Positions 8,421 through 36,280 of a stretch of DNA of 64,000 nucleotides are shown here, piece by piece. Both the position numbers and the translations under genes were made by a program. The stretch is from a phage, in sequence record PZ386965.1. One strand, given 5' to 3'. Position 1 is the stretch's first letter, and each line of letters begins with the position of its first letter. The notes under the pieces were generated by a model. That model was not told the DNA's origin. It saw nothing but the letters and a program-made list of their open reading frames with translations, and made no database searches.

Positions 8421-9521
8421 TTACGCTGTGAAGATTTTATCCCACATCGCAACAACTGCATCTCGATTATACTTCTTCCATACTGCTTCAGCACGTTTAA
8501 CTCGAGCTTCGTATGTGTCAGTGAATTCTAATACAGCTTTTGTGTAAAGCGCAACTACTTCTTTCTTAGGAGTAGAGGAATCAATTTCTACACGCACAGT
8601 ATCTGGGTCGTATTCAAATGACGCATGAGGATAATCCTTAAAAACTAACTGGATTACAGGGACACCTTTAGAGATGGCTTCAATAGAACTATTCTCTACC
8701 GTACCTGTGTCAGGACACGTATTAATAAGTGCTTTAGCTGTTTTAAGACGTTCCATAATTTCACTGTGTGGAGCATCAATAATAACAGGATATTTAGCTG
8801 GTGGTGCCCATTTACTAGGACAGTATCCTGCACCATTTTCGCCTAGTGCTTTAATCGCTTCAAGAGCAACATCAGTACGACGCATTTTAGTGTCATAACG
8901 TTGTGCACTAATAATCAGATCAGTCGCCGGAAGAACTTCAGGTTTCTCATTCAAACAAATAACCGGATAATCTTCGGCTTCAAACAACGGATTTGCTCGC
9001 CAATAATCATAATCAATTTTGTCAGTCAGACCTGAAGTCATATAACAATATTTACGTTCAAATTCACGGAAGGCTTTAGTAGGAGCATAACTCTTACCAC
9101 CGTTCTTATGAATTTGAATAGTCTGGTCCCAAATTTGAACAATGCCACGAGATACCGGTTCAAATGGTGTTGCCATAAAATTCTTATGAACTTTAGAGAG
9201 ACCTGCGTCTTTAATTGCCTGAACGGTTAGTTTAGTCGGTTCCATAGTAACAACGAAATCGTATTCATGGATGCCGGCTAGTTCAACAATCTTACGAGCC
9301 ATAGTATAACTCATACCTAGACTGAATTTAGTCAGATGACCAACAGGATGATGATTAACCTTCCAATCACCAAATGTGTCATTATCAAAACCAATATAAT
9401 CAATATCGGCACCGATAGAAACTAAATATTTCAACACATTTAAATGTACTGCTTCAAGACCACCTTGTACACGGTCAGGATTAAATGGGACTGCACGAGA
9501 TGGGATAAACATAACTTTCAT
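8421..9521 (-). CDS. putative GT-B fold glycosyltransferase (candidate hmC-DNA pentosyl/arabinosyl transferase)
   Basis: 366 aa; N-terminal MKVMFIPSR...GGLE and C-terminal EAISKGVPVI resemble GT4-like glycosyltransferases; occupies T4 gene 60/mobA slot. Confidence 0.55.
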   Translation of the reverse strand: MKVMFIPSRAVPFNPDRVQGGLEAVHLNVLKYLVSIGADIDYIGFDNDTFGDWKVNHHPVGHLTKFSLGMSYTMARKIVELAGIHEYDFVVTMEPTKLTVQAIKDAGLSKVHKNFMATPFEPVSRGIVQIWDQTIQIHKNGGKSYAPTKAFREFERKYCYMTSGLTDKIDYDYWRANPLFEAEDYPVICLNEKPEVLPATDLIISAQRYDTKMRRTDVALEAIKALGENGAGYCPSKWAPPAKYPVIIDAPHSEIMERLKTAKALINTCPDTGTVENSSIEAISKGVPVIQLVFKDYPHASFEYDPDTVRVEIDSSTPKKEVVALYTKAVLEFTDTYEARVKRAEAVWKKYNRDAVVAMWDKIFTA

Positions 9522-28125: not shown

Positions 28126-28488
28126 TTAAAAGAATTTAAATTTTTTCTTGGCCCGTTCATTAAAAGCTTGTTGTACTTGCATTGTAACACATTTTTCAAC
28201 ATGCGGTGCAAGTTCTGCTTTTCTGTCCTGGTCAAGAACTGCAAAGTCCATTACGATTTTACCATCAACCCAGTCTAGTTTTGTAATATAGACTATATGA
28301 TGAGAACCGTCTTCAAGTGTAATCAGAATCTCTTGAATGACATTTTCCATTGCTGAACGGATAATTTTAAGAGATTCATTAAACACTCGTTCTTTGCGAA
28401 TGTCTTCCCCTTCCGAAGAAGGGGATTCATCAACGATTTCTAGATTTAAATCATCGAGATTATTCATCGAAATCTTCCATTTCGTCAA
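28126..28488 (-). CDS. 40: gp40-like protein
   Basis: 120 aa ORF between uvsX and 41 as in T4. Confidence 0.45.
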   Translation of the reverse strand: MTKWKISMNNLDDLNLEIVDESPSSEGEDIRKERVFNESLKIIRSAMENVIQEILITLEDGSHHIVYITKLDWVDGKIVMDFAVLDQDRKAELAPHVEKCVTMQVQQAFNERAKKKFKFF

Positions 28489-29632
28489 GGTCGTTTTCTA
28501 TATCTGCTGCAGACGGAGCATCAGAAGCTTTAACCGGAACTTTAGTTGTTGCTTTGCAATTAATAAGGTCGTTAACAGCGTCATCAACTTCTTTAATAGA
28601 AGAGATAGCACCTAGTTTATATTTAGTTTCAATTGCATCTCGGAAAGGTTTGTGTTTAAACAAAGGTCCCCAGAATTCTACACAATCAGTAGCTTTAGCA
28701 CGCCACGATTTCTCTTCACGAATCATTTCGCCTGTTTCTTCGTCAAGGAATTCACGAGCATACCAACCGGCTTTAGGCTTAACAACAAATCCAATTTCAG
28801 TTGCCATTTCTAACAAGCCACTGAATGGGTCGATACCACCATCAAAATTAACTGTGATTGGGAAAGTAGATTTTTCTTTAACTGTACGAGATTTTTCTGC
28901 TTTCAACGTGAAGTCATAACCGGTCAATTCTGTACCTTCTTTAACCTGACGTTTAGAGATAAAGAATACAGTGTTAGCAGAGTAAAGAATACCTGTACCA
29001 CCACCCATAATCTCTTTAGGATATAGTCCGCCGATTTCCATTGCTGTATGGTTGATTGCAACACACGGAATATCTTTAATAGTCAGATACGGGGTCACAA
29101 TACGGAACAGAGATTTAAGTGCCTTAGCACGAGACATATCACCTACGACTTTCTCATTCAATGCATCTTCGGTTTCTTTCTTAGATGCAGTATTACCGAT
29201 TGAATCGATAAAGATAATAACTTTATCACCGCGTTCAATCGCGTCAAGCTGATTAGTCATATCAACTTTAAGTTGTTCGACGGACTGAATTGGTGTATGA
29301 ACTACACGGTCTAAATCAACACCCATTGAACGAAAATAAGATTCTGAAGCACCAAATTCTGAGTCATAGAACAAACAGATTGCATCTTTATATTTCTTCA
29401 TATACGCTGCAACCATAGTTAGTCCAAACAGCGTTTTAAAGTGTTTAGAAGGTGCAGCAAAAATAGTCAAGCCTGATTGCAATCCTGCATTCAGAGCACC
29501 ACCTAGTGCAATATTCAACATCGGAATACGAGTAGGGACTTCATCACGATTATTAAACAGCTTAGACTTAGTCAAGTCTGCAGTCATTTTAGAAGTAGAA
29601 GCTTTAATCAGACGAGATTTTAAATCAGACAT
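28460..29632 (-). CDS. uvsX: UvsX recombinase (RecA-like)
   Basis: 390 aa; RecA-type ATPase core; T4 UvsX size. Confidence 0.9.
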   Translation of the reverse strand: MSDLKSRLIKASTSKMTADLTKSKLFNNRDEVPTRIPMLNIALGGALNAGLQSGLTIFAAPSKHFKTLFGLTMVAAYMKKYKDAICLFYDSEFGASESYFRSMGVDLDRVVHTPIQSVEQLKVDMTNQLDAIERGDKVIIFIDSIGNTASKKETEDALNEKVVGDMSRAKALKSLFRIVTPYLTIKDIPCVAINHTAMEIGGLYPKEIMGGGTGILYSANTVFFISKRQVKEGTELTGYDFTLKAEKSRTVKEKSTFPITVNFDGGIDPFSGLLEMATEIGFVVKPKAGWYAREFLDEETGEMIREEKSWRAKATDCVEFWGPLFKHKPFRDAIETKYKLGAISSIKEVDDAVNDLINCKATTKVPVKASDAPSAADIENDLDEMEDFDE

Positions 29633-29731: not shown

Positions 29732-30280
29732 TTAACGAGCCCATTTGATGATTTCTGTAATCAAACCATTACGTTCGCTTGCATTAAATCCTATAACTTT
29801 GTTAGCACCATCATGATTAAGTAATTGATATGTTTGGATTTTGTTATGAATTGCAAACTCTTCAAAATGTGAAATGACTGTATTAAAACCGAATGAAGAC
29901 AAAGTAATAAGGTCGTCTTCAAAACTTTCAGTCATTTCGTTACGTGTTAAAATAATTGTGAACACATCATGGTTTTGGCAAAGACGAACATAGTCCTGTT
30001 CATAAACGTCAAGAATCGAGTCCGCATCTTGTCGAATACGTCCATAAACCCAGTTACTAATATATCCACGGTCTAACAGATAAATCTTAGTAGGGTCTAA
30101 ATAATTCAACATCGTTTCGAAACAACCAACTTCATTTCGAGACTTAACATCGAAACGTCCATCAACTGTTCGTTTAGGGAAATCAATCTTTACATATCTT
30201 TCACTAATTTCCATTATGTCATTAATGAAAGTTGTTTTACCGGCATTATCCGGGCCATCTACTAAAATAATTTTAGCCAT
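29732..30280 (-). CDS. P-loop kinase, thymidylate/nucleotide-kinase-like
   Basis: 182 aa; Walker A VDGPDNAGKTT and LLDRGY (DRY-like) motif; occupies T4 segA/beta-gt interval. Confidence 0.55.
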   Translation of the reverse strand: MAKIILVDGPDNAGKTTFINDIMEISERYVKIDFPKRTVDGRFDVKSRNEVGCFETMLNYLDPTKIYLLDRGYISNWVYGRIRQDADSILDVYEQDYVRLCQNHDVFTIILTRNEMTESFEDDLITLSSFGFNTVISHFEEFAIHNKIQTYQLLNHDGANKVIGFNASERNGLITEIIKWAR

Positions 30281-30281
30281 T

Positions 30282-31181
30282 TTATTCCTCGATTACGACA
30301 TCTTCGTATTTAGGTATATTATACGGCGAAGAAATTAAAGCATTAAAGTAGATGAACTCACCAAGACCTGGATGGAATACTTCTTCAGGATTTTCGAAAT
30401 ATTGAATTTTCGGACGTCCTTTAAGAATTTGATAGTACTCAGTTTTAGTTGGTTTAAAAATTCGAATCAGCGCTTCTTCAGGATACTTATTTCTGTCGAA
30501 GCTATTATTTGGATCGGTTATATAAAGCGCTTGGCCTAATTGAATTGCACATTCAACCACTTGTTCAAAACGATAGCACGGGTCACTAATTCGAAATGGA
30601 TGAAAAATACCATCTAGATGAATAGGAGCCAAATCACCTACAAGACGCTGCATGATGGAAGGACGTATAACTTTCTGCGTTACGATAATCTTATTACCAT
30701 CTGCACCTGCGTTAACCAGCACTTCTTTTTGACGTTCATTCAACACAGTAGTTTGAAGTGAACGATTAACAGACAACATGTCGGTTTTTAAGAATTCATC
30801 AATATAAAAACGTGGTTTATTAGGGTCTGCAGTGATATTGAAATTGAATTCCACATCAAAAGCGCCGCCATAACCAGTGATATCTGTGATTAGAAAATCA
30901 CAATCATAATAATCAATTAATGAATCAACCACAAATTCATTTTCAGTCCAGAAATATTTACGAGTGTTATACGCGTTATCTTTATACCATAATGGAACAA
31001 ACTTAAATTCTGGGAAAAGACGTTCACATTCTTTAATATCAGATGCATTACGTGGATATGTAATCACATCACCCGGATTAGCACGGTGCAAATGAAGTTG
31101 GAAGTTGCCATCCTTAAGGATAGCATACTGTCCAGTTTCATAAGACCGCATACTCAAGATTGGTACGCGGAAAATAGCCAT
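30282..31181 (-). CDS. hypothetical protein, 299 aa (beta-gt locus)
   Basis: ORF immediately downstream of gene 42 where T4 has beta-gt; no motif recognised. Confidence 0.55.
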   Translation of the reverse strand: MAIFRVPILSMRSYETGQYAILKDGNFQLHLHRANPGDVITYPRNASDIKECERLFPEFKFVPLWYKDNAYNTRKYFWTENEFVVDSLIDYYDCDFLITDITGYGGAFDVEFNFNITADPNKPRFYIDEFLKTDMLSVNRSLQTTVLNERQKEVLVNAGADGNKIIVTQKVIRPSIMQRLVGDLAPIHLDGIFHPFRISDPCYRFEQVVECAIQLGQALYITDPNNSFDRNKYPEEALIRIFKPTKTEYYQILKGRPKIQYFENPEEVFHPGLGEFIYFNALISSPYNIPKYEDVVIEE

Positions 31182-31897
31182 TAGTCAAGGAATCCTTTAA
31201 CATAATCAAAATCACGTTCAAACACATGGGCACTTACCATGGTATGAGTATAATCACCAACTTCTACACCGCATTCGTTAGCGATATAATGAAGTAATTT
31301 TCCTTGGAGATAAAAATCCAACTGCATAACAACAGCACAGTTCTGAGAACGCATATGACAGTGGGTATAAAGCTTACCATCACGAATATAATAAGTTACT
31401 GAGTCAGTACATGGATATTCAAGTGTTTCGTCCGAATCAAGCAAAGCCTGATCAGAACTTTCTAGAATTTGGAACACAACTCTTCGAGAGTTAGGTTTTT
31501 CTTTAAGTTCTTTTAGAAGAGTTGGTAATTGGGCCGCAATGCGAGGACCATAGAAAGTGTTGAAGTTCGCCGGCAAAACATCTGATTTTGGTTTAGAAAT
31601 AAATTTAGCGACATTAGGATATGCCTTAAACGCTTCTTCTGCGTTGGTACCACCAGAAATCATAAACTTCCAGAAGTCTTCGGCATATTCATAAGAGATG
31701 CGGTTAATACGTGGGTCGGTCATTTTGAATGATGATGGAGTGTCAACAACTACTGTCATAGACCCAATTTCATTACAACGTCCAATACGAGAATCAGTTA
31801 CGAATTCCGGGTTTTCTAAAATTTCACGATTGACTGCTTTAAACGCGGTTTGAAAATCTGCGGCTTTGATATATTTCATTGTGTTATGTTTTCCCAT
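31181..31897 (-). CDS. 42: dCMP hydroxymethylase (thymidylate-synthase fold)
   Basis: 238 aa; CTDSVTYYIRD...MRSQN block aligns with T4 gp42 CTNTVQYLIRD...MRSND. Confidence 0.8.
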   Translation of the reverse strand: MGKHNTMKYIKAADFQTAFKAVNREILENPEFVTDSRIGRCNEIGSMTVVVDTPSSFKMTDPRINRISYEYAEDFWKFMISGGTNAEEAFKAYPNVAKFISKPKSDVLPANFNTFYGPRIAAQLPTLLKELKEKPNSRRVVFQILESSDQALLDSDETLEYPCTDSVTYYIRDGKLYTHCHMRSQNCAVVMQLDFYLQGKLLHYIANECGVEVGDYTHTMVSAHVFERDFDYVKGFLD

Positions 31898-31939
31898 GTT
31901 TACCTCAATACAATTTATTATATACTCAATTCGTAAAGC

Positions 31940-32179
31940 TTATTTGAATTTCTTGACAATGTTGATATAACGTAAAGCTTCAGAATCTATACTTCCAAGA
32001 ACACTATGAAGGAATGCATCAGTGTAGTATTCTAATTGAACAGGTTCTTTAATCACTTTAGCCGCTTTGGTTTCAAACAGGCCCATAAGGGCCTTTTTAA
32101 GAATTTGTTCGTTAGTGTTCAGTTTCATAGTCAAAATCTCTTCGTTAAGTTTATAATTAAAACTTTTTCTAGAAATCAT
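31940..32179 (-). CDS. hypothetical protein, 79 aa
   Basis: ORF at 3' end of sugar cassette. Confidence 0.45.
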   Translation of the reverse strand: MISRKSFNYKLNEEILTMKLNTNEQILKKALMGLFETKAAKVIKEPVQLEYYTDAFLHSVLGSIDSEALRYINIVKKFK

Positions 32180-33345
32180 TCCGGGTACCTCAAAGCGTCA
32201 TCAGAGTTAGTTATATCAATAATAGATATGGAGTTTTCTGCTAACCCGTTTTTAGATAATTGACGTTTATAATACCTTTCACAATATGTACACGTTGACC
32301 CACAGATTTCATTAGCACAATCAAAATCTGGATGTCTGAACCACCTTTTTTCTAAAAAGCCATCTAACAAAGAGGTTTCAATATTTACTGTATGTGAAAA
32401 CTCAGTCTCATTTTCAAGAGTGAAAATAGTCTCTAAAGGCTTCCACAGTTCTAACAAATTACCTTCAAACTTTTCAGAAGCGTATGCTTCAAGAACTTTC
32501 AAAATGTAGTCTGTGCTACCTGTACGTCCTGAAACTTTGAATTGAGTGATACCAATATCATTATAAAGTTTCAAATCTTGAGGACGAACAAAACGAGTTC
32601 TCAACCAGTTAAATGGGTCTGTATCACGAGCTTTAATACAGTGCTGCATTGGATATCCATTTAAGGATTTAGCATCATCAGCGGTAACATCAGTACTATG
32701 GAAAATATAGCAAGAGTCACGATAGCTACAATGTGTTGTATACCCTTTACCAGCATTAGAACAGAACTCATTTACAAGAACTTCAAATATTATATTGTTC
32801 TTATTGCAAAACTCTGCTGCACGCTTCAGGAAAGAAACTGAACGGTTCTTATGAATTCCACAGCAGACCTTTTTGATATTATATTGGTCATGCAAGTATT
32901 TGATTTGAGTTACGGCATCAACATGTAGAATTGTTGAAACTTCAATCTCAATATCTTTATTGACTTCACGAACAATTTCCATAACAACAGGGTTAGCGAT
33001 AGTAATACGCCATACGCCTATTGACCAAAGATACTGAACATAATCCTGAATAGCTTTCTTCTTCCACTCAACTAGTTCTCTTTTTGAACCAGGATTTATC
33101 GTGTTGAGTGTATAGTTAAAGCAAATACCTAATTCATTACAACGTTTAACATAGTCTTCTAACATCTTTTTGTCAACGTCAGGAAGCCTAAAATCAGGTC
33201 TGGCTGCTACAAAAGCCATTTCTCTTGTAGAACCATATACTTCGTTTATCAAGCTATTAGGATAGGTTTTATTGAGCTCTACGATTTTATCAAGAAGAGC
33301 TAAATCAAAATTCGTTCCGATTTTAAAAGTATTCATTTTTTGCAT
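32176..33345 (-). CDS. Cys-rich enzyme of unknown family (possible Fe-S/metal site)
   Basis: 389 aa; C-terminal C-x4-C-x3-C-x2-C cluster (CANEICGSTCTYC); inside sugar cassette. Confidence 0.55.
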   Translation of the reverse strand: MQKMNTFKIGTNFDLALLDKIVELNKTYPNSLINEVYGSTREMAFVAARPDFRLPDVDKKMLEDYVKRCNELGICFNYTLNTINPGSKRELVEWKKKAIQDYVQYLWSIGVWRITIANPVVMEIVREVNKDIEIEVSTILHVDAVTQIKYLHDQYNIKKVCCGIHKNRSVSFLKRAAEFCNKNNIIFEVLVNEFCSNAGKGYTTHCSYRDSCYIFHSTDVTADDAKSLNGYPMQHCIKARDTDPFNWLRTRFVRPQDLKLYNDIGITQFKVSGRTGSTDYILKVLEAYASEKFEGNLLELWKPLETIFTLENETEFSHTVNIETSLLDGFLEKRWFRHPDFDCANEICGSTCTYCERYYKRQLSKNGLAENSISIIDITNSDDALRYPE

Positions 33346-33391: not shown

Positions 33392-33793
33392 TTATAGATT
33401 CGGTTTATATGATTTAAATGTTTCGAATTCGCCTTTATTCATAAGAGTTTTGAATTCGTCAGGACGCATAGCTTTGTCGTCGATAATCCAATCATATACT
33501 GGTTTATGTGTTAGCAAATTATGGTACTTCAAACCAATGTTTTCCAAGTTCTGAATCAGACTTGGGAGAATGTCAATTGCTATACGACCAGGACCTACTG
33601 ACTTCATACCACGAGCAGTGTAAAGCGTTATGGTATGCCCTGCATCATACAGGGCATTAATGGCAGACACCATTTCGACGTCCGGTTTGAAGTTCACGTA
33701 ATCACGATTGTTATTCCACTCTGTTATACAATCATCGACATCAAAACAAAGATTAAGCATGTTTTCTACACGGTGCATTAGATTCGTTCCCAT
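33392..33793 (-). CDS. HAD-superfamily phosphatase (cap-less, KdsC-like)
   Basis: 133 aa; motif I FDVDDCIT, motif II LYTARG, motif III/IV K..DWIIDD. Confidence 0.6.
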   Translation of the reverse strand: MGTNLMHRVENMLNLCFDVDDCITEWNNNRDYVNFKPDVEMVSAINALYDAGHTITLYTARGMKSVGPGRIAIDILPSLIQNLENIGLKYHNLLTHKPVYDWIIDDKAMRPDEFKTLMNKGEFETFKSYKPNL

Positions 33794-35463
33794 TGATGAG
33801 TGATATCGCCACCGATTGGACGATAGGAAACACCAGTTTCTTTATCAGTTAGTACCCATTTACCAGGATTTTTTGTAATCAGAGTAGCCATTACAGGTTC
33901 TGCTACGTCATAACTAATAGAGCCATCTTGAAGTACACGACCCATGTTACGTAATTGCTTAGTCAGAAGTTCCATACCTTTATAATATGCGGCTACCGCT
34001 TTAAGTGGATTATTCTTGAAATAACCACCTAATGCAATCCAGATAATTGCTACTGCCAAATGATGATACTCGTTAAACGAACTCATCTTTCCATATTTGT
34101 AAACTAATGGATTGATGTTAATAGTCACATTACAAGTTGTTTCATCAATAGTAAACTGTCCCCAGGTCGGATTAGCATTGAATTCATCATAACCTGAAAC
34201 AGCATAAAGCACTTTAGCTTCATCGTACAATTTTGGCCCGTAAATCTTGGTTTCACCAAAATATCCACGAGGGTCGATAAACTTGACTTCGCCGTTATCA
34301 GTAATCATAGTATTACTGAAGTTCGGGTCACCATGAATAACAGAGTACTGTCCCTGAGAACGGTTATGATAACGAATAAGATGTTCTAAAGCTTGTTTCA
34401 ACATTGGCTTCAGACGTCCAATCTTAGTGTAGTTCACGTGTGTGATTTTACCAAATGAATCAATCAATGGCTGAATGCTTTCACAACGATCAATAACTTT
34501 CGTATAGAACTCTTTAGTGAAATCACGGCGAACAGTTTCAGGACTTACAAAATAAGTGTCCGTGCTGAATTTCAGTGCATCTAAAATTGCATCAACAATT
34601 TGTGGACGAGCAAGACTTGATTTGGATTTAATATATTCAAATGCCGGCTTACCTTTAATACGTTCCATTTCAAAATTATTTTCATTTACCGAAACTAACT
34701 GAGGAACTGAATCTGATTTCACTTTCAAGTACCATGAAATCTCATCTTTTTGAAGAGCTCGACCTTGTTCGGTTAACGCGAATTTAGTTACAGTTTCTTC
34801 GCCAATTTCAACTGCATTAAAACTACGATTAAGTTCACGAACTTCATGAGCTTTTTCAAGTTTAGGCATATCACCTAAATCAATTAGATTCATAAGCTCT
34901 GATTTATTGAATGCACTCCCGTAAAGGAATTCTACAAAATCACGTCCTTTGCAGTATTCGTGAATTTCCTCATCAGTAGAACCCATGTAGAATTCCCAGT
35001 CTTTGAACTGATAAATTCCTACAACATTACCGCCTGTTGAACCTACGTTAGTGATATTTTCACCATCGAAATTATATCGACATTCATCACCCTTAACATA
35101 GATTGCGTTAACATTCCAAGACCATGAACCAAAATCAGGAATAATATCACACCAGTTAACAATTACGTTATGTCCATCTAAATCTTTGTATAATTTAGCA
35201 AGAGCATAAGCAGAACCATACGCTTCATCAACTGTACGAATAGTCACATTGAACCCTTCTTGCTCACAATAAGCTCGAACAGTTTCAGCAAATTTTGAAT
35301 GAACTACTACAATAATTTCATCTGCGCCAAGGTCAGAATAAATTGTATACAAATTGCTCAGAATAGTGTCTTGTTTATAGTTAACAAGCACCTTAGGAAT
35401 ATGATGCGTTATTGGATACAAACGAGTTGCCAGTCCAGCACCAAGAATAACAGCTTTTTTCAT
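33778..35463 (-). CDS. bifunctional sugar-1-phosphate nucleotidylyltransferase / APH-type anomeric sugar kinase
   Basis: 561 aa; N-terminal AVILGAGLATRLYPIT..PKVLV (RmlA-like NTP-transferase); C-terminal HGDPNFSN...FIDPRG (Brenner kinase motif). Confidence 0.7.
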   Translation of the reverse strand: MKKAVILGAGLATRLYPITHHIPKVLVNYKQDTILSNLYTIYSDLGADEIIVVVHSKFAETVRAYCEQEGFNVTIRTVDEAYGSAYALAKLYKDLDGHNVIVNWCDIIPDFGSWSWNVNAIYVKGDECRYNFDGENITNVGSTGGNVVGIYQFKDWEFYMGSTDEEIHEYCKGRDFVEFLYGSAFNKSELMNLIDLGDMPKLEKAHEVRELNRSFNAVEIGEETVTKFALTEQGRALQKDEISWYLKVKSDSVPQLVSVNENNFEMERIKGKPAFEYIKSKSSLARPQIVDAILDALKFSTDTYFVSPETVRRDFTKEFYTKVIDRCESIQPLIDSFGKITHVNYTKIGRLKPMLKQALEHLIRYHNRSQGQYSVIHGDPNFSNTMITDNGEVKFIDPRGYFGETKIYGPKLYDEAKVLYAVSGYDEFNANPTWGQFTIDETTCNVTININPLVYKYGKMSSFNEYHHLAVAIIWIALGGYFKNNPLKAVAAYYKGMELLTKQLRNMGRVLQDGSISYDVAEPVMATLITKNPGKWVLTDKETGVSYRPIGGDITHQWERI

Positions 35464-35504: not shown

Positions 35505-35648
35505 CTAGTTAAAGCATTCATACTTTGCTTGTAGTCCAATCATAATCCATCCGATTATAAGAGTCGGAATCATTACTGGAGCCGTTAAGCTCCAGTAGAT
35601 AGTCATGACAAGCATCAATAGTAAAAGTCCTATTGTTATTGCTTTCAT
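35505..35648 (-). CDS. small membrane protein, 47 aa
   Basis: ATGA overlap with SIS gene stop; hydrophobic. Confidence 0.35.
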   Translation of the reverse strand: MKAITIGLLLLMLVMTIYWSLTAPVMIPTLIIGWIMIGLQAKYECFN

Positions 35649-36280
35649 TGCTCGCCTCGTAACATGGCACCTAGTGCACCGCCTGGATGGAACTTAAGGA
35701 AGTCATTAGAGGTAAATCCACGTTCAGACGAAAGGTTGATAGCGAACGTATCGATAAGCGCTAACAACAATGTAGTGGACATTGTCGGAGCTAAAGAGTT
35801 CTCGTCAACTTCTACCGCGATACCGGTACAGAACGTATAATCAAAAAGAGCTTCGTATTCTTGCGGAATGTCCGGGTTACAATGCAACAGAATCTGTTTA
35901 ACCTGAGGACGAATCATACGAAGATGTTTAGCAACACCTATCATTTCTTCAGTTTTACCAGAACGACTAATATGAATCAACACGTCATTAGGCGCAATGA
36001 ATCCTGCATCACCGTGAGAATAATGCCCAGTGTTCAAGTACATACTTGGGATACCGAGTGAAGCAAATGTCTCGGAAGCTTTAGTTGCAATATTAGCATT
36101 CTTACCAACACCTGTAATAATTACTCGGCTTTCATAATTACTAAGACCAGGGCGTCGAAGAGTTTCTAGAATAGCATTATAACGAGCAGGGTTTTGACTA
36201 ATTACTTTAGCCATAGCGGCCAAAGAAGAAGCTTGTTTTATGATTGCGTCAATAGCGATATTAATAGGAGTAGTTTTCAT
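35645..36280 (-). CDS. SIS-domain sugar-phosphate isomerase, arabinose-5-phosphate isomerase-like (KdsD/GutQ N-domain)
   Basis: 211 aa; ITGVGKNANIATKASETFASLG, ISRSGKTEE, LAPTMSTT, HPGGALG blocks match KdsD SIS domain. Confidence 0.75.
   Translation of the reverse strand: MKTTPINIAIDAIIKQASSLAAMAKVISQNPARYNAILETLRRPGLSNYESRVIITGVGKNANIATKASETFASLGIPSMYLNTGHYSHGDAGFIAPNDVLIHISRSGKTEEMIGVAKHLRMIRPQVKQILLHCNPDIPQEYEALFDYTFCTGIAVEVDENSLAPTMSTTLLLALIDTFAINLSSERGFTSNDFLKFHPGGALGAMLRGEQ

Follow-up and report, generated by a model that had tools for sequence, protein, structure and literature searches.

Two genes in the beta-gt/segA slot of a Mosigvirus: a predicted arabinosyltransferase and a thymidylate-kinase-like nucleotide kinase of the arabinosyl-5-hydroxycytosine cluster

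We analyzed two ORFs in a stretch of phage DNA of 64,000 nucleotides (sequence record PZ386965.1; the window). We consider it fairly probable that they form the end of a synthase–transferase–kinase unit in the Mosigvirus arabinosyl-5-hydroxycytosine cluster and act as in the scheme set out below. The 299-aa protein, modeled as a compact GT-B glycosyltransferase and orthologous to RB69 gp46:47, is predicted to be the first (base-proximal, alpha) arabinosyltransferase on 5-hydroxycytosine. The 182-aa protein appears to be a P-loop nucleotide kinase of the thymidylate kinase (Tmk) fold, orthologous to RB69 gp45 (RB69p045), with 5-hydroxy-dCMP as its probable substrate. The source phage is a Mosigvirus, an RB69-like relative of T4; at this locus, the window is 99.6% identical to p000v and 98% identical to HY126. 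The locus is arranged as follows:

28460-29632: uvsX, flanking the two-ORF pair (Pfam T4_UVSX_C)
29732-30280, minus strand: the 182-aa ORF, which starts MAKIILVDGPDNAGKTT and contains KIYLLDRGYISNWVYG
30282-31181, minus strand: the 299-aa ORF
31181-31897, minus strand: thymidylate-synthase-family gene of 238 aa, flanking the pair on the other side
31898-31939, minus strand: short intergenic stretch arranged like a T4 middle promoter (AAGCTTTAC and, after about 11 nt, TATAAT); a GAGG ribosome site precedes the synthase gene

The T4 order on NC_000866 is 42 / beta-gt / segA / uvsX, so the two ORFs occupy the beta-gt/segA slot. An earlier note on this DNA had described the pair in that place, and both its coordinates and lengths and its comparison with T4 proved correct. 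Little space is left between the genes: the synthase stop codon and the start of the 299-aa gene overlap in TAATG, and a single base lies between the stop of the 299-aa gene and the kinase ATG, for which there is a GAGGA ribosome site. Both ORFs have homologues, 35-100% identical, in some 350 phage records, and the structure models of both proteins are confident (pLDDT 95.1 and 87.8). Given this packing, the homologues, and the models, we regard both as real genes rather than chance ORFs. The putative middle promoter upstream of the synthase gene was picked out by eye from the sequence; a generic sigma-70 promoter and terminator scan found no enrichment over shuffled sequence.

The neighboring gene had been taken for gene 42 in the earlier note, a label that does not hold. 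Its 238-aa product matches PDB 9iqc/9ir2/9iqu almost perfectly (E 3e-160), 9iqc being the flavin-dependent 5-hydroxy-dCMP synthase from phage HY126, and shares only 25% identity with T4 gp42. It reads RSQN where T4 has RSND, the D169N signature that marks 5hodCMP synthases (PMC13326640), and lacks both the Asp that corresponds to D169 of E. coli ThyA and the close similarity that would place it among the T4 gp42 dCMP hydroxymethylases. The near-identity to 9iqc, the 25% figure, and the RSQN motif together rule out a dCMP hydroxymethylase. With flavin and O2, the thymidylate-synthase homologue hydroxylates dCMP to 5-hydroxy-dCMP (PMC13326640). RB69-type phages have arabinosyl-5-hydroxycytosine in place of cytosine, not glucosyl-hmC, and the hmC-based pathway that had been proposed gives way to one in which the base is 5-hydroxycytosine carrying arabinose (PMC13326640).

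The 299-aa gene is about 99% identical in DNA to RB69 p046+p047 over its whole length, which establishes its orthology to gp46:47, and the protein matches phrog_3891 (E 2e-155). A single extra T, a known sequencing error, breaks the gene in two in the RB69 reference record, whereas the window has an intact 299-aa frame; otherwise, nothing substantive differs. RB69 gp46:47 has been named “arabinosyltransferase 1,” with counterparts DLP3 gp79, Thanatos TH1_063, and RL38J1 gp215 (Lee et al., NAR 2026, PMC13326640). The earlier observation that the protein has no recognizable motif was borne out: no Pfam or NCBIfam model, and hence no curated glycosyltransferase model, matched even at E 0.1, and neither the single sequence nor the profile matched any PDB sequence. 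The structure model has two Rossmann-like domains with an inter-domain cleft, the GT-B fold. Residues F193, P195, F196, R197, and D200 are invariant in the family, as is H270-P271-G272, followed in the window by G-E275; both groups fall where the C-terminal domains of GT4-like retaining enzymes have their donor-binding residues (Arg/Lys after C-beta1, E-x7-E) and may correspond to them, but a second Glu is missing.

We found no detectable sequence kinship between the 299-aa protein and the T4 enzymes: hhalign gave probabilities of 0.4% for b-gt and 0.1% for a-gt, and the protein is 50-100 residues shorter than either. Homology, therefore, does not make it a T4 beta-glucosyltransferase (GT63), and genomic position is all that the two share. 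Their chemistry would differ as well, the predicted acceptor being 5-hydroxy-C rather than the 5-hydroxymethyl-C of T4 and the sugar arabinofuranose rather than glucose. Members of the transferase family are distinctly acidic (median pI 5.2, net charge about -10), but T4 alpha-GT is likewise mildly acidic, so this is a weak point that does not settle the acceptor. Purified DLP3 glycosyltransferases, tested singly with UDP-Araf or UDP-Arap, did not arabinosylate 5hoC-DNA, and the authors leave it undecided whether a mononucleotide or DNA receives the first sugar (PMC13326640). As each DLP3 glycosyltransferase was tested, the set would include gp79, the counterpart of the 299-aa protein.

The 182-aa protein is 98% identical to RB69 gp45, which, like DLP3 gp78 and RL38J1 gp214, has been described as a Tmk-like “nucleotide kinase” (PMC13326640). 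Its Tmk-type structural matches are the same as those listed for gp45 in Table 1 of that paper, with no differences. The P-loop kinase assignment of the earlier note stands, as the protein has the Tmk/NMP-kinase fold with a Walker A P-loop, the DR(Y/H) motif, and the residues of the dNMP site. The remote homology searches and structure prediction that the note had called for led to a Tmk fold here and to the GT-B fold in the 299-aa protein. The kinase belongs to phrog_761, “thymidylate kinase,” but scored 15.9 bits against the TIGR00041 cut-off of 83.25 and had no PF02223 hit. It falls below all curated thresholds that apply to Tmk (M. tuberculosis 1g3u, vaccinia 2v54).

The usable alignment was that of the kinase-family profile with M. 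tuberculosis Tmk (identical to 1g3u). With E. coli Tmk alone, hhalign aligned the P-loop only, and pairwise BLAST through a bridge protein, P0291, helped in part. The alignment to 1g3u pairs D11 with Asp9, F34-P35 with Phe36-Pro37, D70-R71 with Asp94-Arg95, S75-N76 with Ser99-Asn100, and Y79 with Tyr103. In TMPKmt, the residues with assigned roles are the P-loop Asp/Glu, for the 3′-OH, the FP and S-N pairs, and the Tyr near the 2′ position. Within the kinase family, conservation is highest at these same matches to the deoxynucleotide site of Tmk (the P-loop Asp, FP, DR, and S-N-x-x-Y). Thymine is recognized in Tmk by a stacking Phe and an Arg to O4 (Phe70 and Arg74 in M. tuberculosis; Arg78 in E. 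coli). At this place the kinase aligns, with low confidence, with an 11-residue deletion at Ala71-Ile81, which includes Arg74, and with L58 opposite Phe70; P0291 has the same gap. The family further differs from Tmk in an invariant F-x-D-D-L-I...F-N in the lid region and in being essentially confined to 5-hydroxy-C clusters.

A second kinase bears on this assignment. RB69 gp159, a gp1-type dNMP kinase, converts 5hodCMP to 5hodCDP in vitro and, together with the synthase, is enough for 5hoC incorporation in E. coli (PMC13326640). The T4 gp1-type kinase and the 182-aa kinase share the same presumed step, phosphorylation of modified dCMP, and since gp159 already performs it, the Tmk-like kinase looks redundant for its assigned role.

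Gene linkage points to the nucleotide as the partner of the kinase. Of the phage records, 351 had the transferase and 344 the kinase, and the range of genera was the same for both. The order synthase, transferase, kinase recurs in Thanatos, in two contigs from uncultivated phages (355 kb and 122 kb), and in a Rhizobium Pootjesviridae phage whose third gene is only weakly kinase-like (hhalign 53%); relatives of the last attach galactose and glucose, not arabinose (PMC13326640). The transferase lies directly downstream of a D169N-type synthase in the window, Thanatos, both uncultivated contigs, RHph_Y68, PWKp16, and Virsaitis27. In Rhizobium phage RHph_Y68, the gp1-type and Tmk-like kinases both adjoin the synthase. 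The unit is not always intact: in Marfavirus, the kinase lies upstream of the U32 gene and not beside the transferase. Because the three-gene unit is kept in Straboviridae, hexose-type Rhizobium Pootjesviridae, and uncultivated phages, we connect the kinase with the 5-hydroxy-C nucleotide and not with arabinose.

Further genes of the window that lie near the unit or have a role in arabinosylation are the following:

8421-9521, minus strand: 366-aa GT4-like glycosyltransferase (RB69 gp3 / Aat type; PDB 9iqz/9ir0, “phage HY126 glycosyltransferase,” E 3e-249)
31940-32179, minus strand: 79-aa ORF (phrog_8601), whose syntenic counterpart in relatives from Marfavirus and Winklervirus is a chorismate mutase gene
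32176-33345, minus strand: 389-aa peptidase-U32-family protein (RB69 gp50; Pfam PF01136, E 7e-11)
33392-33778, minus strand: HAD-type phosphatase (RB69 gp51 / HY126 AfhF homologue; phrog_1238, TIGR01689)
33778-35463, minus strand: 561-aa sugar-1-phosphate nucleotidyltransferase and kinase (RB69 gp52:53 / HY126 AfhE homologue)
35645-36280, minus strand: 211-aa SIS-domain arabinose-5-phosphate isomerase (RB69 gp55; Pfam SIS, E 4e-10; length and position as RB69p055)

The syntenic ORFs of the Marfavirus and Winklervirus relatives match Pfam CM_2 (E 7e-10 and 2e-11), and the 79-aa ORF of the window itself has no CM_2 match. For the 389-aa protein, U32 membership comes from the Pfam match, BLASTP against E. 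coli RlhA and TrhP being uninformative. The phosphatase likely starts at the ATG at 33778 (128 aa) rather than at 33793; RB69p051 and its HY126 counterpart each measure 387 nt and directly adjoin the stop codon upstream. PMC13326640 gives the AfhF homologue as an Araf-1,5-bisphosphate 5-phosphatase and has the AfhE-type bifunctional enzyme produce UDP-arabinofuranose. The 561-aa protein has a Pfam NTP_transferase match at its N terminus and weak APH/kinase matches at its C terminus. Glycosyltransferases of the 366-aa type are second arabinosyltransferases (PMC13326640; PMC13216743).

In the scheme that we favor, the synthase converts dCMP to 5-hydroxy-dCMP, and the 182-aa kinase, with its altered base pocket, would phosphorylate this to the diphosphate, either alongside the gp1-type dNMP kinase or as an aid to it. 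This would allow 5-hydroxy-C to enter DNA by way of nucleoside-diphosphate kinase and the phage polymerase. The isomerase, bifunctional enzyme, and phosphatase encoded just upstream supply UDP-Araf. The 299-aa GT-B enzyme would transfer the first, alpha-linked D-arabinofuranose from UDP-Araf onto the 5-hydroxyl of 5-hydroxycytosine. [quoted passage not shown] The 366-aa glycosyltransferase would then add the second, beta-linked arabinose.

The order of these steps could be different. The 299-aa enzyme might arabinosylate free 5-hydroxy-dCMP, with the Tmk-like kinase dedicated to the bulky arabinosyl-5-hydroxy-dCMP and the polymerase using pre-glycosylated dCTP. This would give a task to a second kinase that otherwise has no needed role, the gp1-type enzyme handling 5hodCMP, and it agrees with the translational coupling of the synthase, transferase, and kinase genes in the window, the conservation of the unit in distant phages, the pairing of both kinases with the synthase in RHph_Y68, and the strong acidity of the transferase family. 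Transfer of the first sugar onto 5hoC-DNA has never been reconstituted, and the choice between nucleotide and DNA was left open (PMC13326640); however, that in vitro negative could be technical, and the characterized phage DNA glycosyltransferases all use polymerized DNA (T4 alpha/beta-GT; DLP3 gp76/77 on RB69 DNA; PMC13326640). Moreover, C5-glycosylated triphosphates can stall family-B polymerases (bioRxiv 10.64898/2026.07.20.739590), the Tmk-like pocket is small, with a deletion rather than an expansion in its base-binding helix region, and the Marfavirus kinase is not beside the transferase. We therefore consider this order unlikely. Sugar activation by the 299-aa protein, as a UDP-pentose pyrophosphorylase rather than a transferase, is suggested by its Thanatos orthologue TH1_063 (48% identity), which yielded UDP-xylose from UTP and xylose-1-phosphate by LC-MS and did not glycosylate plasmid DNA, dCMP, dCTP, or cytosine, acceptors that all lack a 5-hydroxyl (PMC12838424). 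That assay was a single end point with one non-cognate sugar, and the protein has a GT-B fold without similarity to nucleotidyltransferases. The 561-aa protein already has a nucleotidyltransferase domain, its HY126 homologue AfhE being reported as a UDP-arabinose pyrophosphorylase (PMC13326640), and mono-arabinosylating phages such as Thanatos would be left without any transferase. This makes a pyrophosphorylase very improbable.

For the 182-aa protein, the RefSeq and PHROGs labels imply an ordinary thymidylate kinase that boosts dTTP and is unlinked to cytosine modification. The Tmk fold, the phrog_761 placement, and the many RefSeq records labeled “thymidylate kinase” speak for it; the TIGR00041 and PF02223 results and the loss, in the profile alignment, of the segment with the thymine-O4-binding Arg do not. 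T4 gp1 already phosphorylates dTMP in T4-type phages, which also counts against this reading. With the gene essentially confined to phages that have a 5hodCMP synthase and the transferase, and lying inside that cluster in four phage groups, a role in dTTP supply seems to us decidedly unlikely. Substrates other than NMPs, namely the 5-hydroxyl on DNA (compare the 5-hmU DNA kinases of thymidine-hypermodifying phages), 5hodCDP on its way to the triphosphate, or a sugar, would account for the apparent redundancy with gp1, and some had been raised in the earlier note. The best-conserved residues of the family, however, are those of the Tmk deoxynucleotide site. O-Glycosylation of a hydroxyl requires no phosphate activation, which leaves a kinase acting on a DNA intermediate unsupported. 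Nor did we find support for a kinase that phosphorylates a sugar or supplies nucleotides for NDP-sugar synthesis, since sugar kinase and uridylyltransferase activities both reside in the separate 561-aa protein and the Tmk-like kinase accompanies the synthase in hexose-type clusters that use host UDP-sugars as well. Any of these substrates is highly improbable. The earlier proposal is supported in part: roles in the modification pathway are probable, but hmC, NDP-sugar supply, and phosphorylation of sugar or DNA are not upheld.

Although the observation holds, it is not novel: publications of 2025-2026 had already set out the pathway and what both genes are predicted to do, and our analysis, therefore, adds no new biology. 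Were the first arabinose added before replication, it would make the first natural glycosylated dNTP to serve as a replication substrate and would explain both the two distinct dNMP kinases and the unreconstituted transfer of the first sugar to 5hoC-DNA. Many records mislabel these genes as “hypothetical protein,” “thymidylate kinase,” “dCMP hydroxymethylase,” or “RNA polymerase binding protein,” and corrected annotation has practical value. In Mosigvirus and many other phages, the arabinose cover on cytosines blocks restriction enzymes, glycosylases, and CRISPR, which makes the arabinosylation pathway relevant to phage therapy and to research on defense systems.

Both open reading frames that the earlier note described at 29732-31181, as replacing the beta-gt locus, were recovered in an ORF listing. 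Together with their neighbors and the other cluster members in the window, they are as follows.

8421-9521, minus strand: second glycosyltransferase, 366 aa
28460-29632: uvsX, flanking the kinase gene
29732-30280, minus strand: 182-aa kinase, with GPDNAGKTT and LLDRGY
30282-31181, minus strand: 299-aa transferase
31181-31897, minus strand: thymidylate-synthase-family gene, 238 aa, flanking the transferase gene
32176-33345, minus strand: U32 protein
33392-33778, minus strand: HAD phosphatase
33778-35463: bifunctional nucleotidyltransferase/kinase, 561 aa
35645-36280: SIS-domain arabinose-5-phosphate isomerase

Comparison of gene order places b-gt and segA of T4 in the interval held here by the two genes, and the positional observation is therefore correct. 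The synthase-family gene ends in a stop codon that shares bases with the start codon of the 299-aa gene (TAATG), and a single base separates the stop of the latter from the kinase ATG, which is preceded by GAGGA. The 42-nt gap before the synthase gene (31898-31939, minus strand; GCTTTACGAATTGAGTATATAATAAATTGTATTGAGGTAAAC) contains a MotA-box-like GCTTTA and, after a spacer of about 11 nt, TATAAT, followed by a GAGG ribosome site. Read from the sequence, these motifs may form a middle promoter of T4 type from which synthase, transferase, and kinase are expressed as a single unit. Over its 1.7 kb, the locus shares 99.6% identity with Escherichia phage p000v and >98% identity with many Mosigvirus genomes, HY126 and RB69 among them. 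The mechanically called HAD phosphatase ORF has 133 aa and a start at 33793, so placed that it overlaps with the end of the 561-aa gene; in the RB69 and HY126 annotations, its ATG abuts the upstream stop, giving 128 aa and a start at 33778 in the window.

The earlier note had taken the upstream gene for gene 42 and the pathway for that of hmC, which is wrong: the 238-aa synthase is only 25% identical to T4 gp42, carries RSQN in place of the T4 RSND, and matches PDB 9iqc/9ir2/9iqu (E 3e-160). An Asn at the position of ThyA D169 marks enzymes that make 5-hydroxy-dCMP (PMC13326640), a product formed by a thymidylate-synthase homologue using flavin and O2 (PMC13326640). DNA of RB69 and its relatives holds mono- and di-arabinosylated 5-hydroxycytosine (Lee et al., NAR 2026, PMC13326640). 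The 366-aa ORF, which gave no Pfam match and whose sequence shows no detectable similarity to that of the 299-aa transferase, has a near-identical counterpart (E 3e-249) in PDB 9iqz/9ir0, "phage HY126 glycosyltransferase," and is the RB69 gp3/Aat-type second arabinosyltransferase. Pathway membership, the idea of a transferase, and the kinase fold survive from the note's interpretation, with 5-hydroxycytosine rather than hmC as the modified base and without a role in sugar supply. For RB69, DLP3, HY126, and Thanatos, earlier publications describe both genes and the roles predicted for them. Database labels are inconsistent, naming the transferase "hypothetical" or "RNA polymerase binding protein," the kinase "thymidylate kinase," and the synthase "dCMP hydroxymethylase" or "thymidylate synthase."

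The 182-aa kinase shares 98% identity with RB69 gp45, a protein listed solely as "nucleotide kinase" (Lee et al., PMC13326640). When 1.84 billion representatives were searched by profile, the family proved small (291 proteins at E<=0.001, 44 at E<=1e-10), with a weak tail reaching Pfam Thymidylate_kin, dNK, and AAA_28 proteins. Across 45 diverse members, G9, D11, G14, K15, K36, D70, R71, S75, N76, Y79, R113, D122, D123, and N133 are invariant or at least 90% conserved. Aligned with M. tuberculosis Tmk (query checked as identical to 1g3u; hhalign probability 92.7%), the family pairs D11 with Asp9, F34-P35 with Phe36-Pro37, D70-R71 with Asp94-Arg95, S75-N76 with Ser99-Asn100, and Y79 with Tyr103. 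In TMPKmt, these residues hold the 3'-OH, phosphate, base N3, and 2'-deoxy face of the dNMP. The segment with the thymine-O4-binding Arg74 falls in a deletion in this alignment, and the kinase does not reach the curated Tmk models. With the dNMP-site residues kept, the Arg74 stretch absent from the alignment, and those models missed, the protein appears, from its sequence, to be a Tmk-type kinase of deoxynucleoside monophosphates whose base pocket differs.

The 299-aa protein matched no sequence family and no PDB sequence, in keeping with the note's view that it lacks a recognizable motif. We gathered 136 homologues and aligned 52 of them. The predicted structure (pLDDT 95.1, pTM 0.89) was compared with known structures, scoring 17.5 against sucrose-phosphate synthase (6kih), 16.7 against BshA, 15.9 against PimA, 14.5 against the HY126 glycosyltransferase (9iqz), and 13.1 against T4 alpha-GT (1y6f). 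The gene is RB69 gp46:47. Relative to the window and HY126, the RB69 reference (L002:4598-5498; NC_004928 24597-25497) has one extra T at alignment column 545, which splits the gene into RB69p046 and RB69p047 and leaves the window and HY126 frames intact; the extra T is a sequencing error (Lee et al., PMC13326640).

Matches by tblastn to the transferase came from 351 phage records and those to the kinase from 344; the genus spectrum was the same for both. The order synthase-transferase-kinase is repeated in four other contexts: the Shewanella phage Thanatos (48% and 44% identity, the former for TH1_063, L007:5460-6362, an orthologue of the 299-aa GT-B protein), a 355-kb and a 122-kb metagenomic contig, and Rhizobium phage RHph_Y68 of the Pootjesviridae (hhalign strong for the transferase, 99.2%, and weak for the kinase, 53%). 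In Pootjesviridae, the sugars on 5-hydroxycytosine are galactose and glucose (PMC13326640). Since the kinase has a match in this hexose-type setting too, it tracks the modified nucleotide and not arabinose, and the proposed nucleotide supply for NDP-sugar synthesis is not upheld. The two genes are not always neighbors: the Marfavirus kinase gene (L011:2968-3507) lies upstream of the U32 gene and not after the transferase, and from the tblastn coordinates the two may also be apart in Dhakavirus (IME341). On the 122-kb contig, a Flavodoxin_2-family gene (L005:3739-4293) of the FMN-dependent NAD(P)H oxidoreductase type directly precedes the homologues of the 5hodCMP synthase, transferase, and kinase; its product may supply reduced flavin to the flavin-dependent hydroxylase.

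The U32-family gene was found by tblastn in 222 phage records. Among the genera in the tblastn summary and the 40 matches listed, all hosts are facultative anaerobes belonging to Enterobacterales or Shewanella, and identity across genera is at least 82% among the matches listed. No Acinetobacter phage is among those genera and matches; 57 Acinetobacter phage records hold the transferase and kinase. Two relatives from Marfavirus and Winklervirus, Klebsiella phage PWKp16 and Erwinia phage Virsaitis27, have a chorismate mutase gene (Pfam CM_2; L011:4661-4906; L012:4658-5002) as the small gene separating U32 from the synthase; the syntenic 79-aa ORF of the window (31940-32179, minus strand) has no CM_2 match. 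Chorismate mutase produces prephenate. RlhA and TrhP are U32-family enzymes. In bacteria, they carry out prephenate-dependent hydroxylation (5-hydroxy-C2501 of 23S rRNA and 5-hydroxy-U34 of tRNA, respectively; PMC13602947). As O2 is required by the phage synthase, an O2-independent back-up route to 5-hydroxycytosine in anaerobic infection could be provided by the U32 protein, together with chorismate mutase in the phages that encode one. The RB69-type protein is listed solely as "sugar or heterocycle reductase" (Lee et al., PMC13326640), and our literature search found no paper proposing such a route.

In the pathway we favor, the synthase turns dCMP into 5hodCMP (PMC13326640), which the 182-aa enzyme would phosphorylate. 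Arabinose-5-phosphate is converted to UDP-Araf via AfhE and AfhF homologues (PMC13326640); the 299-aa enzyme would add the first, alpha-linked arabinose, and DLP3 gp76 and gp77 add a third on DNA (PMC13326640). Three published results run against this simple reading and hold our confidence in the two predicted roles to somewhat better than even. RB69 gp159, a gp1-type kinase, already makes 5hodCDP from 5hodCMP, and single DLP3 transferases gave no arabinosylation of 5hoC-DNA (PMC13326640). Alternatively, the first sugar would be added to free 5-hydroxy-dCMP before replication, with the Tmk-like kinase dedicated to the arabinosylated nucleotide; we regard this as unlikely, and the DLP3 authors do not decide between nucleotide and DNA as first acceptor (PMC13326640). 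The third result is the report of TH1_063 as a UDP-xylose pyrophosphorylase (PMC12838424), an activity that does not fit the modeled fold. In the same literature, TH1_060, which bears the nucleotidyltransferase domain, showed no activity (PMC12838424), and the conflict may reflect a sample swap or contaminant.

The 299-aa protein, the predicted first arabinosyltransferase, has no sequence relationship to T4 b-gt or a-gt. The genomic slot of the T4 glucosyltransferase is occupied here by an enzyme that is not its orthologue but belongs to its fold class.
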